Shown piece by piece: positions 1 through 6,761 of a stretch of 6,761 nucleotides of DNA; position 1 is the first letter of the stretch, and each line of letters opens with the position of its first letter. The stretch is from a virus (Duplodnaviria > Heunggongvirae > Uroviricota > Caudoviricetes). A program made the position numbers and the translations under genes. The stretch is from the IMG/VR virus record IMGVR_UViG_2778261223_000006, positions 1 to 6,761 of that record; one strand, 5' to 3'. The notes under the pieces were generated by a model. It saw nothing but the letters and a program-made list of their open reading frames with translations, did not search any database and was not told the origin of the DNA.

Positions 1-251
1 TGCTGCTTTAATGCTGCGGTAAACACACACTTCCAGCTTTCTGCATCCAGCCAGCGACCATGCCATTCAACCTGACGAGAGACGTCACCAAGGCAAGCCC
101 AAAGCTTTCGGTTTTGGTCTAAGCTGCGGTTGCGTTCCTGAATGGTTACTACGATTGGTTTGATTGGGTCTGGAAGGATTTGCTGGATAGCTTGAATGGC
201 GTTCTGCTGATGGATGGGGCTTCTTAGTTCAAACGTTAGTTTCCTCACCAT
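1..251 (-). CDS. ninB: NinB (Orf-family recombination mediator), N-terminal ~83 codons; gene continues past the left edge of the window
   Basis: Minus-strand translation from ATG at 251 gives MVRKLTFELRSPIHQQNAIQAIQQILPDPIKPIVVTIQERNRSLDQNRKLWACLGDVSRQVEWHGRWLDAESWKCVFTAALKQQ..., which matches my recollection of lambda NinB almost residue for residue. SD AGGAG lies 5 nt upstream of the ATG. Not in the ORF track because it is truncated by the window edge. Confidence 0.85.
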   Translation of the reverse strand, partial: MVRKLTFELRSPIHQQNAIQAIQQILPDPIKPIVVTIQERNRSLDQNRKLWACLGDVSRQVEWHGRWLDAESWKCVFTAALKQ

Positions 252-393
252 TTACGCTCCTGTAATCGTCAAGTGCAGCTGCAATAGTCCCTATCGGGTC
301 ATGGTCTTGCCCGATAATCTCATTTACGTTTTCATCTTCTTCCACACCGAAAAAGAATCGCAGGGCTAACATGATTTCTTCGTATGCGCTCAT
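229..393 (-). CDS. Hypothetical small acidic protein (54 aa)
   Basis: Translated by hand: MSAYEEIMLALRFFFGVEEDENVNEIIGQDHDPIGTIAAALDDYRSVNGEETNV. Strong SD AAGGAG 5 nt upstream of the ATG, which sits 2 nt after the stop of the upstream 104-aa ORF. Its 3' end overlaps the ninB start by about 23 nt in another frame. No recognisable family. Confidence 0.5.
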   Translation of the reverse strand: MSAYEEIMLALRFFFGVEEDENVNEIIGQDHDPIGTIAAALDDYRSVNGEETNV

Positions 394-395
394 AC

Positions 396-710
396 TCACT
401 CCTTCACTTTGACTCCAGCAGCGCGGATGTTTTCCTCATAAGCATCCATTGCATCACCGAAGCCATTGGAATAATCAACAGAAAACCCTTTGGCTAATGC
501 TTCTCTGCTGTCGATAAACTTTGGCGCGGTTATTTCAATAGCTGCTCGCGATGCATGCCATAAAGCCCACCACTCATTTAAGGAGTGACGAATATCCATG
601 CTTGAAAATGCAAAGTACCTATCACCATTTCTTGCCTCGGTTATCATCTCGAATGGTAATCTCAATTTTTTGGCAACGTATTCCTCAAACTGCTTTCTTG
701 ATTCGTCCAT
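396..710 (-). CDS. Hypothetical phage protein (104 aa), nin-region accessory gene
   Basis: ORF-track ORF with ATG start and SD GAGGGT about 9 nt upstream. Compact operon spacing with flanking genes. No family recognised from memory. Confidence 0.65.
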   Translation of the reverse strand: MDESRKQFEEYVAKKLRLPFEMITEARNGDRYFAFSSMDIRHSLNEWWALWHASRAAIEITAPKFIDSREALAKGFSVDYSNGFGDAMDAYEENIRAAGVKVKE

Positions 711-727
711 CGATACTTACCCTCAGT

Positions 728-934
728 TCAACTCACAAAACGCCACGCCATTTTTGCTACAGCGACAGGCATAACACCGATAATCACCCAGACAAATGCA
801 GCGCCAAACAACGTATACCATGGGTCTTTACCGTCATTCACAAGACGAATGTAGCTATGCAGAACAATAAAAAACGTCAGAAGAATCCATCCAACGCCAA
901 CGCATTTGAGTGCGACGAGCATAAACTCAGCCAC
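728..934 (-). CDS. Small hydrophobic membrane protein (68 aa, about 2 predicted TM helices)
   Basis: ORF-track ORF, GTG start preceded by strong SD GGGGGAGAG about 6 nt upstream; an in-frame ATG 4 codons downstream is an alternative start. Two long hydrophobic stretches (LVALKCVGVGWILLTFFIVL and LFGAAFVWVIIGVMPVAVA). Confidence 0.55.
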   Translation of the reverse strand: MAEFMLVALKCVGVGWILLTFFIVLHSYIRLVNDGKDPWYTLFGAAFVWVIIGVMPVAVAKMAWRFVS

Positions 935-949
935 GATTTACTCTCCCCC

Positions 950-981
950 AAATAAAAAGGCCTGCGATTACCAGCAGGCCT
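950..981 (-). terminator. Rho-independent terminator downstream of the helicase gene (tR2-like position)
   Basis: Perfect 8-bp GC-rich inverted repeat aggcctgc (958-965) / gcaggcct (974-981) with 8-nt loop. On the minus-strand transcript it is followed by UUUUUAUUU (complement of 949-957). Confidence 0.6.
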
Positions 982-1009
982 GTTACAAGCTCAGTGATGT
1001 AGATGGTCA

Positions 1010-2446
1010 TCAGAATCCTCCTTTCTTCTTGGATTGCGGTTCCTCGCGTTCACGGCGGCGCATTTCAGCGGACTGTTGGTCTGTGTCATAAATAGCGCCA
1101 TTTGCCTGAATGCAATACACCGTGCCGGTATTGCCATGACGATTGAGACGAAGGATTAGTTCGGTTTCACCAGGTGGAACACTGTCATCAAAAGCACCTT
1201 CACGATGGATCCCCACCCAATAATCGCAATCCTGTTCAATCTGCCCTGTATCTCGTGAGTCACTTGGTAATGGGCGTTTATTGGTTCTGCTTTCCAGTGC
1301 GCGGTTAAGCTGCGTCAGAAGCACAACAACGCAATCAAGCTCTTTGGCAAGGTTCTTCAGTCCTTTGGTGATCATGCCGTAAGCAAGGTCGTTGCGATCG
1401 GCCTTCTCAGCAGTCATTAGTGTCAGGTAATCGACCAGAATCATGCCAACACATCCTTTTTCTCGCTTGATTCGACGACTTTCGCTGACGATTTGAGCCA
1501 GAGATAATCCCGGCGTGTCGTCGATGTAAAGCAGGTCGATTTCACTCAAGCGATTGGCTGTTTCGATCGCCCTGTTGAAGTCACCATCGTAATCACCCTG
1601 ATAGCCGTCATCAGCGTCATTTGTCGCCGGAAGGTAAAAAATATTCGGGTTAACACCTGACTTCTGTCCTACCAGTTTTTCCAGTATCTGGTCACCGGGC
1701 ATTTCAAGGCTGAACATCAGAGCGGGCTTTTTCTCATGCACTGCGCAGTTGATTGCCATCTGGCTGTATAGCGTCGTTTTCCCCATCTTAGGGCGAGCGC
1801 CAATGACAAACAGAGAGCCTTTCACCAGACCTTTCGGTGACAGCATCCTGTCCAGCGATGGGATCCCTGTGCTCATTCCTCGTTGTTCGCCTGACGGGTC
1901 AAATCGCTTCTCAAGGTCGCTAACCCAGTCTTCCATGACCTCACCAAATGAGCGAAGGCCGCGACGCGATCCGGTTTTTGCATGGTCTGTCAGTTGCGTA
2001 AAAATCGCCTGAATAGCTTCGTACTTCTGCGTCGCAGTCATTCCGTTGCGGGAATAGAGCAATTCCGTCGCTTCAGTCATGCGGTTGATGGCGTAGCGTT
2101 CCATTGCGGTTTCACGAACCTGCATTGCATAGGCAACGATGTTTGCTGCGCTTGGCGTGTTCTTTGCGATCTCAGCGATATAAGCAAAACCGCCAACAGA
2201 CGCCGTTAACGATTTACGCTCCAGTTCATCGAAAAGCGTCAGGCCATCTACTGGCTTTTGCTCCCGGTGCATTCTGGTTATTTCTTCGAAAAGGATTTTG
2301 TGTGGTCGGCTGTAAAATGAATCAGGCTTCAGCATCGCCAGAACTTTCTGGACGCGCTCACTGCTGTCATCATCCAGAAGCAATCCACCAATCACCGCCT
2401 GCTCTGCCTCGATGCTATGGGGCGGCGCATAAAAATTATCGGTCAT
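1010..2446 (-). CDS. dnaB: Replicative DNA helicase, DnaB family
   Basis: Near-colinear with E. coli DnaB as I recall it: N-terminal PHSIEAEQAVIGGLLLD, FAYIAEIAKNTPSAANIVAYA, Walker A GARPKMGKTT, and LTQLNR...RPLPSDSRDTGQIEQDCD. The track ORF starts at a GTG at 2461; I prefer the ATG at 2446 (MTDNFYAPPHS...), which has SD GAGG about 10 nt upstream. Confidence 0.93.
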   Translation of the reverse strand: MTDNFYAPPHSIEAEQAVIGGLLLDDDSSERVQKVLAMLKPDSFYSRPHKILFEEITRMHREQKPVDGLTLFDELERKSLTASVGGFAYIAEIAKNTPSAANIVAYAMQVRETAMERYAINRMTEATELLYSRNGMTATQKYEAIQAIFTQLTDHAKTGSRRGLRSFGEVMEDWVSDLEKRFDPSGEQRGMSTGIPSLDRMLSPKGLVKGSLFVIGARPKMGKTTLYSQMAINCAVHEKKPALMFSLEMPGDQILEKLVGQKSGVNPNIFYLPATNDADDGYQGDYDGDFNRAIETANRLSEIDLLYIDDTPGLSLAQIVSESRRIKREKGCVGMILVDYLTLMTAEKADRNDLAYGMITKGLKNLAKELDCVVVLLTQLNRALESRTNKRPLPSDSRDTGQIEQDCDYWVGIHREGAFDDSVPPGETELILRLNRHGNTGTVYCIQANGAIYDTDQQSAEMRRREREEPQSKKKGGF

Positions 2447-3326
2447 CGTGTTCACCCTCACGAACTTTCAGGTAGGTATTATCGTTAAGCAGGAAATCAA
2501 ATCCCTTTTTGTGCCAGACGGTTCCGCGTTGATGGTTTGGGCGCTCTTCGAACATCCATCGGCAATTTTCGCCAACGTAGCTCAAATAATTTCTCCAGTC
2601 CTGCATCGTGAACCCATGCCCGTCAAGTTGGCGTGTTATTACTCCGGCTTTGCGCCAGAACGTTCGGATCTGGTTTTTACGCTTGTCATTCAGTGCGCGG
2701 ATTCTTGGCGCTTCAGGAAGGATTTCGTGGTAAGCATCGACAACATCCTGACAGCTGACGGAAGGTTTTTTCTTGTCAGACTTTTTGTCTGCTGTGGCAC
2801 TCTCTAATACGTCAGTATTAGAGATATTATTTATATTATTGTTTATGGACAACCGTTGGACAACCGTTGGACAATCTCCGCTGAGAGCCGCGCCATTACT
2901 GGTGTTTGCGTTGGACAACCGTTGGACAACCGTTGGACAATTTTTTGCCTGAAAATCGTCATATTTAACGATTGTAAACAGGCTAAATTTCTTCCCCATC
3001 GAGCAAATATTAAGCATCCCTTTCGACTCAAAAGTCCGTAATAAGCTCCGAACTTTGTTGTCGGGGATGAATGTTTCTCTGACCAGCGACGGGCGTCCAG
3101 TTATCATCTGACCGCGATCAACAGTTATCGGCCCGATATCCGTATTGACGACAGTAGATTCGTGATTAGCCTTGAGGATTAAGTGAAGCCAAAGATGTAC
3201 TGCCTGAGAGTCCTTATAGAGCCTGCTGTCCATAAACTGGCGGTGTATAGAGACATACCCCATACTGGATGCCTCCTGATGTTGTACAGGGTTATGCCTG
3301 TAATCAGCTAACTTAACGACGCCCAT
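2436..3326 (-). CDS. O: Phage replication initiation protein (lambda O-like origin-binding protein) with the origin embedded in its coding sequence
   Basis: Sits between cII and the helicase as in lambdoid replication modules. Contains internal iterons plus an AT-rich tract (2810-2940), encoding a repeated CPTVVQRLS linker peptide. SD AGGAG 6-7 nt upstream of the ATG at 3326. Sequence family not confirmed from memory. Confidence 0.75.
   Translation of the reverse strand: MGVVKLADYRHNPVQHQEASSMGYVSIHRQFMDSRLYKDSQAVHLWLHLILKANHESTVVNTDIGPITVDRGQMITGRPSLVRETFIPDNKVRSLLRTFESKGMLNICSMGKKFSLFTIVKYDDFQAKNCPTVVQRLSNANTSNGAALSGDCPTVVQRLSINNNINNISNTDVLESATADKKSDKKKPSVSCQDVVDAYHEILPEAPRIRALNDKRKNQIRTFWRKAGVITRQLDGHGFTMQDWRNYLSYVGENCRWMFEERPNHQRGTVWHKKGFDFLLNDNTYLKVREGEHDDR
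2810..2845. other. AT-rich DNA-unwinding region of the replication origin, adjacent to the iterons
   Basis: Sequence tacgtcagtattagagatattatttatattattgtttat is strongly AT-rich within an otherwise balanced coding region. It lies immediately downstream (in gene orientation) of the iterons, as in lambda ori. Confidence 0.6.
2846..2874. repeat. Origin iteron cluster 1: tandem 11-bp direct repeats ccgttggacaa (two full units and one partial)
   Basis: Direct read: tggacaa (2846-2852), ccgttggacaa (2853-2863), ccgttggacaa (2864-2874). Lies inside the O-like gene. Confidence 0.8.
2909..2940. repeat. Origin iteron cluster 2: three tandem copies of (c)cgttggacaa
   Basis: Direct read: cgttggacaa (2909-2918), ccgttggacaa (2919-2929), ccgttggacaa (2930-2940). 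Separated from cluster 1 by a 34-bp spacer. Confidence 0.8.
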
Positions 3327-3474
3327 GCTTCACTCCTGCTTTGGCTAGTCTGTAAACACCAACAAGGCGCTCTGCGAACGCCCTGTTATTTGCTGCGGCT
3401 ACCACTAATCCCTCAGGTGAATCAGGGTGTCGAATCTCTTCTTTTTCCTGGTATTTCTTACGACGTTTTGTCAT
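3313..3474 (-). CDS. Hypothetical small basic protein (53 aa) between cII and the O-like gene
   Basis: Translated by hand: MTKRRKKYQEKEEIRHPDSPEGLVVAAANNRAFAERLVGVYRLAKAGVKHGRR. Strong SD AGGAG 5 nt upstream of the ATG at 3474. Stop overlaps the start of the O-like gene by 14 nt. Absent from the ORF track (below its length cutoff). Confidence 0.5.
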   Translation of the reverse strand: MTKRRKKYQEKEEIRHPDSPEGLVVAAANNRAFAERLVGVYRLAKAGVKHGRR

Positions 3475-3508
3475 AATTACTCCTGTGGATTGATCCAGTC
3501 TTTCTACA

Positions 3509-3787
3509 TCAGGCCTCGAAGAATTCGCCGTTCTTCGGGGCTTTTTCTTTTGTCAGCATTCTGGCTACTTTCTTAGCCAGTTCCGCCAACTCCTCGTCTT
3601 CAACACCCCATTCAAGAACAGCAAGAAGCATTCCCATTTTGGGGATGAAGCTGTCTTTCCATCGCGAAATTTGCGATTCATTAATCCCTAACGCGTCGGC
3701 AACCTTTCGCTGACCACGTACAGCAATTCGATTCAGGATGTTGCTTGTAATTGCATTCGCTTTCTTGCGAGTACTTGTAAGTTGCAT
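3509..3787 (-). CDS. cII: Transcriptional activator CII
   Basis: The core SQISRWK...IPK...MLLAVLEWGVEDEE aligns with lambda CII (SQISRWKRDWIPKFSMLLAVLEWGVVDDD). The RBS/start context TTAAGGAAATACTTACATATG is lambda-like. Position directly downstream of cro and nutR. Confidence 0.9.
   Translation of the reverse strand: MQLTSTRKKANAITSNILNRIAVRGQRKVADALGINESQISRWKDSFIPKMGMLLAVLEWGVEDEELAELAKKVARMLTKEKAPKNGEFFEA
3741..3754 (+). promoter_or_regulatory. Candidate CII-binding box (TTGC-N6-TTGC) of a PRE-like promoter reading towards cro/cI, inside the 5' end of cII
   Basis: TTGC ttgtaa TTGC read on the plus strand at 3741-3754, antisense to cII codons about 11-15. Lambda PRE has the same TTGC-N6-TTGC architecture within the cII N-terminal coding region. 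No clear -10 identified. Confidence 0.35.
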
Positions 3788-3844
3788 ATGTAAGTATTTC
3801 CTTAACTAATAAGAAGTTATGCGCATCAACTTATGCGCGTTGTA

Positions 3845-3889
3845 TTCCCGCATTTCGGCGGGAATGAGGACCATGACTGTTAAAGAGCG
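3845..3889 (-). promoter_or_regulatory. nutR site: boxA (complement of 3878-3889, CGCTCTTTAACA) and boxB hairpin (complement of 3845-3863)
   Basis: Minus-strand boxA matches the boxA consensus. The boxB hairpin sequence ucccgccgaaaugcgggaa is identical to the nutL boxB at 5544-5562. Lies between cro and cII as in lambda. Confidence 0.7.
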
Positions 3890-3895
3890 GTGTTA

Positions 3896-4090
3896 CTATT
3901 TGTTTTTCTTGTTGCTTGGGAAAGGACGAACTTCCTCTCCAATCACACTGCCATCAGGCTTTACCGTAACCATAATGTTACGGCCTGCCAGAATGGCCTT
4001 GCTGATAGCGCACTGGATTACACCAAAGTCACTGGCTGCTTTAGCCTGTCCATGGATTTTGGCGTAATCGGCAAGTGTCATTCGAATCAT
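3896..4090 (-). CDS. cro: Cro repressor
   Basis: [64 protein letters not shown] aligns along its length with lambda Cro ([63 protein letters not shown]). The track begins at a GTG at 4096; I prefer the ATG at 4090, which has SD GGAG 7-8 nt upstream. Confidence 0.9.
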
Positions 4091-4119
4091 ATGCACTCTC
4101 CGTTATTAACCATGAACAA

Positions 4120-4148
4120 AGAATACTACAGGTATTCAAAGCAATCAA
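4120..4148 (-). promoter_or_regulatory. PR-like promoter for cro: -35 TTGATT (complement of 4143-4148), 17-bp spacer, -10 TATTCT (complement of 4120-4125)
   Basis: Read on the minus strand. The -10 hexamer is identical to the PL -10. Both hexamers overlap the operator palindromes. Confidence 0.6.
4121..4137. promoter_or_regulatory. Operator OR1-like site, GAATACtacagGTATTC
   Basis: 17-bp site with perfectly symmetric 6-bp arms GAATAC/GTATTC. Overlaps the PR -10. Confidence 0.6.
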
Positions 4149-4162
4149 TACTCAGGGTATTT
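4146..4162. promoter_or_regulatory. Operator OR2-like site, cAATACtcaggGTATTt
   Basis: Symmetric arms AATAC/GTATT. Overlaps the PR -35. Closely related to the OL site at 5432-5448. Confidence 0.55.
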
Positions 4163-4196
4163 TTAGTTTAAGTACCTTAGCTATTAGAATTAAGCT
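4162..4196 (+). promoter_or_regulatory. PRM-like promoter for a leaderless cI transcript: -10 TAGAAT at 4185-4190, poor -35 TTTAGT at 4162-4167
   Basis: TAGAAT ends 6 nt before the cI ATG (4197) and there is no SD upstream of cI, as for lambda PRM/cI. A possible degenerate third operator lies at about 4170-4187. Confidence 0.5.
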
Positions 4197-4913
4197 ATGG
4201 AAAATAAAAAATCACTGACGACAGAACAGCTCGAAGACGCTAAGCGGCTTAAGGCTTTGTATGAGTCAAAAAAGAAAGAATTGGGAATAACCCAATACTC
4301 AATCGCTGATGAACTGGGTATCACCCAAGGAGCGGTAGGGCATTATCTTAATGGCAGAAACGCGCTAAACGTTGAGGTCGCATCTGGTTTTGCACGTTTG
4401 TTGCAAGTCTCAATTGCTGATTTTAGCCAGTCAATTGCTGCCAAGGTTGCAGAACAGGCAGAAAGCCTTAAGAGCGATGCCAACGTAAGGTATGCAGGGG
4501 AATACAGAGCAGGAAAGAGGTATCCGGTGTTAAGCAGTATCCAGGCTGGCTCGTGGTGTGAAGCATGCGAACCATACACCATTAAAGACATAGATGTTTG
4601 GCTTGAGTCTGACGCGCATATTCAAGGTAATGCGTTCTGGCTTAAAGTGGAAGGTGATTCAATGACGGCACCGGTTGGGTTAAGCATTCCAGAGGGAACA
4701 TTCGTTCTTTTCGATACCGGAAGGGAGGCGATCAACGGCAGCTTGGTCATAGCAAAACTTTCTGACTCTAACGAAGCAACATTCAAGAAGCTGATAATCG
4801 ACGGCGGAAATAAATACCTCAAGGGACTTAACCCTGCATGGCCTCTCGTGCCAATCAATGGAAACTGCAAGATTATAGGCGTTGCAATTGAGACAAAACT
4901 AAGGCTGGTTTGA
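4197..4913 (+). CDS. cI: CI repressor (HTH DNA-binding domain plus S24 LexA-like autopeptidase domain)
   Basis: N-terminus LTTEQLEDAKRLKALYESKKKELG matches lambda CI ([24 protein letters not shown]), with a divergent recognition helix. Ala-Gly cleavage site (IQAGSW), catalytic Ser (VEGDSMTAP) and Lys (ATFKKLI) motifs are present. Confidence 0.95.
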   Translation: MENKKSLTTEQLEDAKRLKALYESKKKELGITQYSIADELGITQGAVGHYLNGRNALNVEVASGFARLLQVSIADFSQSIAAKVAEQAESLKSDANVRYAGEYRAGKRYPVLSSIQAGSWCEACEPYTIKDIDVWLESDAHIQGNAFWLKVEGDSMTAPVGLSIPEGTFVLFDTGREAINGSLVIAKLSDSNEATFKKLIIDGGNKYLKGLNPAWPLVPINGNCKIIGVAIETKLRLV

Positions 4914-4932
4914 TCACGCAAGGGGGACGCTT

Positions 4933-5301
4933 ATGGTTGGAACCGCTATAGCAAGCTTTTTTGGGATGTTGGCAATCTCAACAATTTACGGCTTAGCGCA
5001 TGCTTTTATTGCGAAATCTCTATCAGAAAAAATAAGCCAGGCTTGGGCGCATAGATCAGCTCGTTTCATGATTCTAGTGGTCATAGCAATACAAGGGATA
5101 TCTGCATTTATCCTCTATGGATCAAGCTTATACCTGTTGTATCAAGGCGCGACATTTACGCCTTACACCAGTGATTACGGAACTCTATACGATGGTAGTG
5201 AAGACATCTCTATGGCTTGGATCGTCTTTGGTTTATCTGTGGCCGTGTCTGTTGTAGCAGACATCATTAAGGTAATTCTCGTCTTAACCTTCGCTGACTA
5301 A
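4933..5301 (+). CDS. Integral membrane protein (122 aa, about 3 TM helices) co-transcribed with cI; candidate lysogen-expressed exclusion/defence protein in the rex position
   Basis: ATG lies 19 nt after the cI stop, with SD AAGGGGGA between. Three long hydrophobic segments (residues about 5-27, 45-70, 95-120). Occupies the slot between cI and OL/PL that holds rexA/rexB in lambda. No family recognised. Confidence 0.75.
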   Translation: MVGTAIASFFGMLAISTIYGLAHAFIAKSLSEKISQAWAHRSARFMILVVIAIQGISAFILYGSSLYLLYQGATFTPYTSDYGTLYDGSEDISMAWIVFGLSVAVSVVADIIKVILVLTFAD

Positions 5302-5431
5302 CCCATAATCCCGGCAGCAATAGCTATCGGGATCCACTTCACATATCCCGCATAAAAAGCACTGAACAAGCAGATACCGAAAAAATAAATATCCTTTGTA
5401 TTCATCTGTTTATCATTATTTCATCAAAAAT

Positions 5432-5473
5432 AAATACCCTGGGTATTTACACAATAAAATACCTACAGTATTC
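5432..5473. promoter_or_regulatory. OL operators: AAATACCCtGGGTATTT (5432-5448, perfect 8-bp arms) and AAATACCtacagTATTC (5457-5473)
   Basis: Palindromes read directly. Same ATAC...GTAT half-site family as the OR sites. They overlap the PL hexamers. Confidence 0.65.
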
Positions 5474-5474
5474 T
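5446..5474 (+). promoter_or_regulatory. PL-like promoter: -35 TTTACA (5446-5451), 17-bp spacer, -10 TATTCT (5469-5474)
   Basis: Hexamers with canonical spacing, overlapped by the OL palindromes. About 190 nt upstream of the N-like gene. Confidence 0.6.
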
Positions 5475-5520
5475 TTAGCCATCAGCAGGACGCTGGTAGC
5501 CAAACGGAACAGATTGGCAG

Positions 5521-5562
5521 GCTCTTTAACATTGATGGGATTGTCCCGCCGAAATGCGGGAA
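5521..5562 (+). promoter_or_regulatory. nutL site: boxA GCTCTTTAACA (5521-5531) and boxB hairpin tcccgccgaaatgcgggaa (5544-5562)
   Basis: boxA matches the boxA consensus. boxB is identical to the inferred nutR boxB. boxA-boxB spacing is 12 nt here and 14 nt at nutR. Confidence 0.7.
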
Positions 5563-5668
5563 CCAAAGAGTAGTTGGCTTTGGGGTGATGTGAAGTGCAG
5601 CTGCACGACGGCAACCGGAAGATAAGCACCCGGCGCGTCACCGCCAAAGTCAATCATCGGAGGTCAAC

Positions 5669-5941
5669 ATGACAGTAGTCATTACATATCTGGCTGACGA
5701 TAACGCCAGAAATCGCCGCAGAGCACGCAGACAGGCTCAACGTGAACAGGCAATGCAAGAACAGCGACTGGCGCGAAAAATTGCGCTAAAGCTCTCTGGT
5801 TGCGTCAGAGCAGATAAAGCAGCATCACTCGGAAGCCTTCGCTGCAAGAAGGCAGATGAATGCAGTGGAAGTATTTGCCTGCCAAACGTAGCTATTTACG
5901 CGGCAGGCTACCGGAAATCAAAACAACTGACGGCGAGATGA
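5669..5941 (+). CDS. N: N-like transcription antitermination protein (90 aa) with N-terminal arginine-rich motif
   Basis: First gene downstream of PL/nutL. Arginine-rich motif DNARNRRRARRQAQREQ near the N-terminus, as in lambdoid N proteins that bind boxB. SD GGAGG 4 nt upstream of the ATG. Confidence 0.65.
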   Translation: MTVVITYLADDNARNRRRARRQAQREQAMQEQRLARKIALKLSGCVRADKAASLGSLRCKKADECSGSICLPNVAIYAAGYRKSKQLTAR

Positions 5942-5957
5942 TAAATTAATTTGCTAA

Positions 5958-6539
5958 TTACTTGTTTTTGCCGTGCTTATCCTGAGCGATAAGTTCATCC
6001 ATAAGACTGTCTTTCTTCCCAGCAAACCTAATGTAGCACTCATTTCTATAGCGTTCTGGGATAACAAAACGGTCGATTTCAGGATATCCAGTAGCAGAAG
6101 GTATCCGAATAAGAAGCCCTTTTTCGAGCAATGAGATTGCTTCAGGGCTTCCCTTTTCCGTTTGTAGCTGGTTATTAGCGACTACAGCGAGTGCCAAATA
6201 CGCTCTTTCTCCAAGAGTTAACGAATCAAACAAATCTTGCACGTATTTCTCTTCTTTAGATTTGCGCTTCTGAGCAGCGAATACCTCAATTCTTTCAGTC
6301 ACAGCGTGATAAGCGGAATTAACAACGCCGTTAAGCACATAGCTAACGCAAAACAACAGGATGTAATACATCCAGTAATGAGGAAGGATTTCTGGATTAT
6401 GCAGGTTTATCCATTCTTTTACGCTTACCGGCATAACAATAATCAATATGATCAGGATGATTAGCATATGAATCAACTGTTTAAGTGTCATTCCTTGCAG
6501 GAAAAAATGCATTAGTTCCTGCCACCATGAGTTGTTCAT
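5958..6539 (-). CDS. sieB: Superinfection exclusion protein B-like membrane protein (193 aa)
   Basis: Convergent with N, as sieB is in lambda/P22. N-terminal hydrophobic TM segments (LIHMLIILIILIIVMPV, YWMYYILLFCVSYVL). The sequence matches my recollection of lambdoid SieB but this is unverified. Confidence 0.65.
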   Translation of the reverse strand: MNNSWWQELMHFFLQGMTLKQLIHMLIILIILIIVMPVSVKEWINLHNPEILPHYWMYYILLFCVSYVLNGVVNSAYHAVTERIEVFAAQKRKSKEEKYVQDLFDSLTLGERAYLALAVVANNQLQTEKGSPEAISLLEKGLLIRIPSATGYPEIDRFVIPERYRNECYIRFAGKKDSLMDELIAQDKHGKNK

Positions 6540-6761
6540 CGGCGTTTCTCTTTTGCTCTCTGTAGGGGTGAATAGAGTTTATCCGATTTCTCGCTTGAGC
6601 TGGCCCCCTGAAATACCAGACAGTAGATGTATCTTAAAATAAGAGATAGGCTTGGATATATGTCTAACACTAGTTCTAATTTTGGTAAGCGTAAACTGAC
6701 CGCCGTATGTAGCCATCAGACGAGAATTGGTAACTTAGACGCCCATCTGATATAGACGGAC

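Follow-up and report, generated by a model that had tools for sequence, protein, structure and literature searches.

The stretch between the repressor operon and the N gene of the prophage studied here raises a double question: is it the early-left control region, OL/PL, and how many repressor operators does it hold? We analyzed positions 1 to 6,761 of the IMG/VR virus record IMGVR_UViG_2778261223_000006, a stretch of 6,761 nucleotides that we call the window. From its sequence, we read positions 5432-5474 as the OL/PL of a lambdoid prophage with HK620 immunity, at a probability of roughly 0.9. The number of operators depends on how a weak dyad further upstream is understood.

The window carries an HK620-type immunity region

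The window is an HK620-type lambdoid phage immunity region from an E. coli prophage, and its gene order is reversed relative to the usual lambda map. The genes are as follows.

1010-2461, minus strand: DnaB-type P gene (ORF and Pfam)
2436-3326, minus strand: O gene (ORF and Pfam)
3509-3787, minus strand: cII (ORF and Pfam)
3896-4090, minus strand: cro (Pfam Cro, E = 4e-26; lambda-Cro fold family)
4197-4913, plus strand: cI repressor (Pfam HTH_3 plus Peptidase_S24)
4933-5301, plus strand: hkaS-like gene, 122 aa, a predicted membrane protein (HK620 hkaS)
5669-5941, plus strand: N antitermination gene, the first in the PL transcript (ORF; Pfam N_peptide, E = 1e-15; HK620 N)
5958-6539, minus strand: sieB (ORF and Pfam)

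The cI protein is identical to that of HK620 at 237 of 238 residues and the Cro protein at all 64 of 64, while the DNA of region 3800-6000 is 98.6% identical to HK620 over 97% of its length and 98.0% identical to HK140 over its full length. Because both regulators and the surrounding DNA are nearly identical to those of HK620, we conclude that the window has HK620 immunity. The same immunity is found in HK140, HK630, mEpX2, HF4s, phi296, some Stx2c phages and many E. coli prophages. At the level of the operators, the OR1-OR3 region and OL1 are identical to HK620, and OL2 differs solely at the central position 5439.

Beyond the immunity module, the window departs from HK620 in a mosaic fashion: sieB follows N, an arrangement like that of HK140, and the P gene encodes a helicase of the DnaB type. 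The chromosome of E. coli strain GF4 is 100% identical over 5300-5700, yet it carries other replication genes, and the element is therefore a mosaic prophage. HK140 (L002, about 3365-3570) also has an insertion of ~200 bp between nutL and N that is absent from both the window and HK620. Two sets of sequences were used for the comparisons below. The same-immunity set comprises 65 IMG/VR loci whose cI is about 100% identical, giving 66 alleles together with the window. The cI relatives are Enterobacterales prophages with 52-87% cI identity, which we cite by locus number.

Some further features of the window deserve mention. The hkaS-like gene at 4933-5301 occupies the position that rexAB has in lambda, between cI and OL. 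Its product belongs to no Pfam family and matches phrog_6534, a group of unknown function; the gene could be a candidate for a lysogen-expressed exclusion gene. Within the O gene, tandem TTGGACAACCG iterons at 2848-2943 correspond to the rep_origin feature of HK620. An Rfam scan of the whole window gave zero family matches.

Two related operators cover the PL promoter

The elements of the two control regions are listed here, with scores from the position weight matrix (PWM) described below.

5446-5474, plus strand: PL, with the -35 hexamer TTTACA at 5446-5451, a 17-bp spacer and the -10 hexamer TATTCT at 5469-5474 (HK620 pL)
5432-5448, plus strand: OL2, AAATACCCTGGGTATTT, the strongest operator (22.7 bits; OL2 of HK620 record AF335538)
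5457-5473, plus strand: OL1, AAATACCTACAGTATTC, 25 bp centre to centre from OL2 (19.2 bits; HK620 OL1)
4121-4137, unstranded: OR1 (18.6 bits; HK620 annotation)
4146-4162, unstranded: OR2 (19.6 bits; HK620 annotation)
4170-4186, unstranded: OR3 (15.3 bits; HK620 annotation)
5520-5561, plus strand: nutL, with the boxA-like GGCTCTTTAA at 5520-5529 and boxB UCCCGC-CGAAAU-GCGGGA at 5544-5561 (HK620 nutL)

A first-pass annotation, made from the letters of the window, had identified 5432-5474 as OL/PL. Comparison with HK620 bears this out, in that both operators, the -35 and the -10 occupy the very bases that are annotated as OL2, OL1 and pL in that phage. Its record, AF335538, holds features for OL1, OL2, OL3, pL, tIMM, nutL and N; mapped base by base, OL2 falls on 5432-5448, OL1 falls on 5457-5473 and pL begins at TTTACA. 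Since the HK620 features fall at the same positions, the first-pass reading reproduces an existing annotation. The genome record (AF335538 / NC_002730) goes with Clark et al. 2001 (J Mol Biol 311:657). A literature search on HK620-type immunity found neither experimental operator binding nor transcript-start mapping, and the public HK620 annotation may be purely computational.

PL is a promoter of the sigma-70 type that matches 9 of 12 consensus positions in a promoter scan. It lies between the end of the cI operon and N, pointing towards N, and its -35 and -10 are each overlapped by one dyad operator. The right end of OL2 covers 3 bp of the -35 TTTACA, in agreement with the earlier statement that a palindrome overlaps this hexamer. 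A second, related site had been placed on the -10, and OL1 is indeed related to OL2 and overlaps TATTCT by 5 bp. The same hexamer had been said to serve PR, which reads on the minus strand as TTGATT (4148-4143), 17 bp and TATTCT (4125-4120). Transcription from PR runs leftward, and that from PRM proceeds rightward into cI. The promoter scan returned no divergent minus-strand promoter in the OL region. We also considered a second plus-strand promoter with the -10 TATTCA at 5398-5403 and rejected it, as a quick check by eye of the window and L110 (~45% identity upstream) found no recurring -35 located 17 bp upstream.

A motif scan had been suggested as a check on these sites, and when run over the window it showed that the OL and OR sites share a consensus far beyond chance. 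Allowing at most 3 mismatches to AAATACCNNNGGTATTT, we found 7 matches against 0.31 expected, a count that 0 of 200 shuffles reached, and 6 of the 7 fall in the two expected control regions. We then used the PWM, built from the half-sites of the five clear operators, for which the window has a mean of -15.8 bits and an SD of 6.6. The top five 17-mers of the window are OL2 (22.7), OR2 (19.6), OL1 (19.2), OR1 (18.6) and OR3 (15.3). OR1-OR2 and OL2-OL1 are moreover related as an inverted repeat of 45 nt with 76% complementarity. The predicted operator consensus of the family is AAATACC-N3-GGTATTT, a 17-bp dyad.

The Cro protein offers a separate view of the register of this dyad. It is 63% identical to lambda Cro, and its recognition helix keeps Gln-H1, Ala-H3 and Lys-H6. 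The published Cro code (PMC6649833) assigns to these residues an A at +2, an A at +5 and a C at +6, and these bases are all present in the half-site AAATACC, as they are in the lambda half-site TATCACC. This match to the code supports a 17-bp register centred on a base pair.

The PL scaffold is shared with lambda and with cI relatives

The 14 nucleotides of CATCAGCAGGACGC (5479-5492) are identical to the start region of lambda PL and lie at an equal distance from the -10. From this identity and spacing, we infer that PL starts at A5481. Relative to that start, OL1 extends from -24 to -8 and OL2 from -49 to -33, compared with -25 to -9 and -49 to -33 in lambda. In both systems, the operators are 17-bp dyads with a base pair at the centre, OL1 overlies the -10 and OL2 the -35, and the start bases, an upstream AAAAAATAAAT and a nutL-bearing leader before N are shared. 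The whole stretch from -101 to +14 is collinear between lambda and the window, without net indels.

The two systems also differ. The half-site is AAATACC in the window and TATCACC in lambda, and the DNA-binding domain of the window's repressor is an HTH_3 domain (434/P22-like) and not lambda-CI-like. Distances vary too: OL1 and OL2 are 25 bp apart, compared with 24 in lambda, and OL is separated from OR by 1.29 kb, compared with 2.3 kb in lambda (PMC3708714). The predicted PL scaffold is thus conserved across immunity types, though operators and repressors differ.

The leader follows the same plan. The boxB hairpin folds at -10.5 kcal/mol, the 19 nt at 5544-5562 recur without mismatch, inverted, at the boxB of nutR (3845-3863), and nutL and nutR share an 18-nt repeat at boxA with 89% identity. 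Further along, a leader block GGCTTTGGGGTG (5576-5587) is common to lambda and the window.

The cI relatives share with the window the recognition helix GHYLNGRN, ATAC..GTAT half-sites at both OR and OL, and an OL1-OL2 pair that is 24-25 bp apart in all. This pair lies downstream of the cI relatives of Serratia, Pantoea, Kluyvera, Proteus, Yersinia and Photorhabdus, among others, and is conserved down to 52% cI identity. The Morganella prophages L101-L104 carry two strong ATAC-type sites ~750-800 bp after the cI start that are 45-47 bp apart, not 25; this arrangement may be a different OL architecture or may include a weak middle site. In L066, whose cI is 87% identical, a hairpin GCCCGG...CCGGGC at ~3611-3632 lies upstream of OL and has a T-run solely on the strand opposite cI and PL; this pattern points to a terminator serving antisense transcription of the cI operon.

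A dyad upstream of OL2 may be an operator, an upstream element, or both

The first-pass annotation counted two OL sites, where lambda has three. This count is fair, as two sites score 19-23 bits, but it missed a weaker dyad further upstream.

5387-5403, plus strand: candidate distal third site, AAATATCCTTTGTATTC, 45 bp upstream of OL2 and -94 to -78 from the predicted start

This dyad has 3 mismatches to the operator consensus and scores 12.0 bits. No other consensus match lies near OL1 and OL2, so that a third OL site, if there is one, would be this dyad. The cI relatives differ in their third site, which lies at -21, -30 or -45 from OL2 or is absent, and the window belongs to the -45 class.

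Third site at -45 from OL2: the window type, L066, L067, Serratia L089, Kluyvera L110, Phytobacter L113 and Pantoea L129
Third site at -30 or -29 from OL2: L072/77/78, L085, L086 and L128
Third site at -21 from OL2: L088/90, L091, L092, L093 and L100
No third site: L070 type, L084, L094/95 and L130

Since the dyad sits within a frame that is shared with lambda, whose operators are unrelated, it may be a weak operator, an A/T-rich upstream activating element, or both. The chances are about even that OL consists of two operators and that 5387-5403 is the form taken in this lineage by an A/T-rich element conserved upstream of PL, operator-like by chance. In both lambda (L133) and the window, AAAAAATAAAT (window 5380-5390) stands at -101 to -91 from the start, and the frame from -101 to -76 recurs in most relatives wherever the third site lies. 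Several relatives (L070 type, L084, L094/95 and L130) have only two OL sites. The frame, AAAAAATAAAT...CAT, takes in the left half of the dyad (AAAT..) and a 3' CAT and is conserved in nearly all lineages, including lambda; by itself it supplies ~9 of 14 consensus positions. It may correspond to the UP/IHF element of lambda. IHF-dependent stimulation of lambda PL was reportedly described by Giladi et al. 1998. The lambda literature places a UP element proximal to OL (PMC3708714) and cites IHF stimulation of PL (PMC1784095). What speaks against chance resemblance is the interior of the frame: the -45 group, with its ATAC-like cores, is sharply unlike all other lineages there, and this difference is inversely related to whether a proximal third site is present.

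We consider a genuine third operator at 5387-5403, ~4.3 helical turns upstream of OL2, possible while leaning slightly against it. Such an operator would take the role of lambda OL3, for example in repressing PRM through an OL-OR loop, and might mask the upstream activating element of PL. The -45 offset is operator-like (8.8-14.6 bits) in 7 diverged lineages, compared with scores of -12 to +5 in 15 other cI-relative lineages and lambda. It is operator-like in 0 of 10 lineages that have a proximal third site (-21/-30) and in 7 of 12 that do not (Fisher p = 0.005, phylogeny ignored). Pairwise comparison within the -45 group gives 77% conservation for the 14 outer positions of the dyad, with a variable centre, whereas spacers and flanks are 45-51% conserved; OL1 and OL2 reach 86-89% in the same group. 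Among the 66 same-immunity alleles, the dyad shows a single change, at a central position. Sites of at least 9 bits occur in the 100 bp downstream of OL1 in 0 of 64 loci and upstream in 51 of 64, many of these loci being near-identical.

Several observations pull the other way. The score of 12 bits is tied with those of 813 and 6279, both probable chance sites in the window, and the right half-site is degenerate in several lineages. In addition, the seven -45 lineages may share the dyad by descent. That CI truly binds 5387-5403 is accordingly a tentative proposition, which on these sequence comparisons falls somewhat short of an even chance. Rather doubtful is a fuller proposal in which 5387-5403 would be a true third operator, distal to the other two, that arose within the conserved A/T-rich element, with the family placing its third site at -21, -30 or -45 or omitting it. 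CI bound there would complete the OL-OR loop and mask the activating element, and the OL3 and tIMM of the HK620 record would be misplaced.

A minus-strand ORF was also considered as the reason for the conservation of the dyad. It encodes 35 hydrophobic amino acids (5405 to 5298; MNTKDIYFFGICLFSAFYAGYVKWIPIAIAAGIMG), and its start lies inside 5387-5403. We rejected it on finding that it is reduced to 3-9 codons in L066, L067, L089, L110 and L113. The ORF has no PHROG match, no PGAP annotation and no obvious ribosome-binding site, and it is probably spurious.

The position of lambda OL3 holds no recognizable operator

In the HK620 record, OL3 is annotated closer to OL2 than the dyad discussed above.

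5410-5426, plus strand: HK620-labelled OL3, TTATCATTATTTCATCA (-14.4 bits), unsupported as an operator

It is highly improbable that OL is built as in lambda, from three adjacent operators of which 5410-5426 is the third. The position of this site, -71 to -55, does match that of lambda OL3 (-69 to -53), but its score of -14.4 bits equals the window background. Four of its positions are polymorphic among the same-immunity alleles, one of them at a frequency of about 50%, and it lies within a spacer that is ~51% conserved between lineages. We therefore rejected it on its score, its polymorphism and its lack of conservation. Evidently, the OL3 of HK620 owes its placement to the position of OL3 in lambda.

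The first-pass annotation had raised the possibility of a degenerate third site in the adjacent interval, 5405-5431. None emerged, as the best 17-mer there scores -6 bits and neither an ATAC nor a GTAT core occurs; across 5398-5437, no 17-mer exceeds -6 bits. At the place of lambda OL3, the window thus has no operator, whereas lambda has three adjacent sites. Three adjacent operators ~20-25 bp apart, as in lambda, were not found here; such an arrangement characterizes lambda without being required, as several relatives also have just two sites.

The tIMM feature of the HK620 record (5383-5413) is not credible as an intrinsic terminator, since it folds at -0.2 kcal/mol (z = +0.18). A hairpin at 5308-5333, which begins 7 nt past the stop codon of the hkaS-like gene, folds at -13.7 kcal/mol (z = -4.5) and has no U-tract on either strand. 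It is a better candidate than tIMM for the 3' end of the immunity transcript.

The perfect palindrome of OL2 is a private allele

The feature that first drew attention to this locus was a perfect palindrome, and OL2 does read AAATACCC-T-GGGTATTT at 5432-5448, with perfect 8-bp arms about T5440. It is the sole perfect 8+1+8 palindrome in the window. By itself, a palindrome of this kind is weak evidence, given that 11% of dinucleotide shuffles hold at least one.

The perfect symmetry hinges on C5439. Compared with HK620, the window has C for T at this position, which makes OL2 a perfect 8+1+8 palindrome, and also C for T at 5406. All 65 of the 65 same-immunity IMG/VR relatives, HK620 and HK140 have T5439, so the OL2 of the family is AAATACCTTGGGTATTT, with 7+7 symmetry. 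The GF4 chromosome must share C5439 with the window, being identical to it throughout 5300-5700. Across the 66 alleles, OL2 polymorphism is restricted to the central positions 5439-5442, and position 8 of the half-site varies freely across the five clear operators. Given this central-only variation and the freedom at position 8, the extra symmetry is probably functionally meaningless. The perfect palindrome is a one-base private variant and not a feature of the family, and a special meaning is unlikely.

That the palindrome acts mainly as an RNA hairpin terminating the cI-hkaS transcript, rather than as a protein-binding site, is very improbable: it does follow the cI operon on the same strand, and a scan found no canonical terminator between hkaS and PL, but it folds at just -5.7 kcal/mol (z = -1.3) without a U-tract, its eighth base pair is missing in 65 of 66 alleles, and its sequence matches four further sites outside terminator positions.

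A working model for HK620-type OL/PL

Taking OL/PL as the reading of 5432-5474, its working would follow lambda closely. PL would fire rightward in window coordinates from about A5481, through nutL into N. With OL2 on the -35 and OL1 on the -10, the two operators would cover the promoter between them. In a lysogen, CI dimers, which carry a 434-type HTH and an S24 peptidase, would occupy OL1 and OL2 in a cooperative manner and keep RNA polymerase out. During lytic growth, Cro would use the same two sites to turn early transcription down. The mirror-image arrangement of OR1 and OR2 on PR, 1.29 kb away, makes a lambda-like OL-OR loop over this distance plausible. In lambda, PRM is repressed by such a loop, together with OL3 and OR3, at the CI levels of a lysogen (PMC3708714). 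Our analysis shows the anatomy of the sequence, the excess of sites, the gene context, the agreement with the HK620 sites and the conservation of the OL1-OL2 pair; for the binding of CI and Cro, cooperativity, the looping and the exact start, we infer the present scheme from homology with lambda.

The OL/PL of HK620-type immunity is already known from a reference genome of 2001, its mechanism would be the textbook one of lambda, and finding it again here changes little. Its annotation calls for care in two respects. The OL3 and tIMM features have been propagated from the HK620 record without support in the sequence, and the perfect palindrome should not be over-read, being a private allele at a freely varying operator position. 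The discrete distances at which the third site is found among the cI relatives may be of wider use, as they offer a possible natural series for relating the spacing of a third operator to long-range CI looping and PRM autoregulation.
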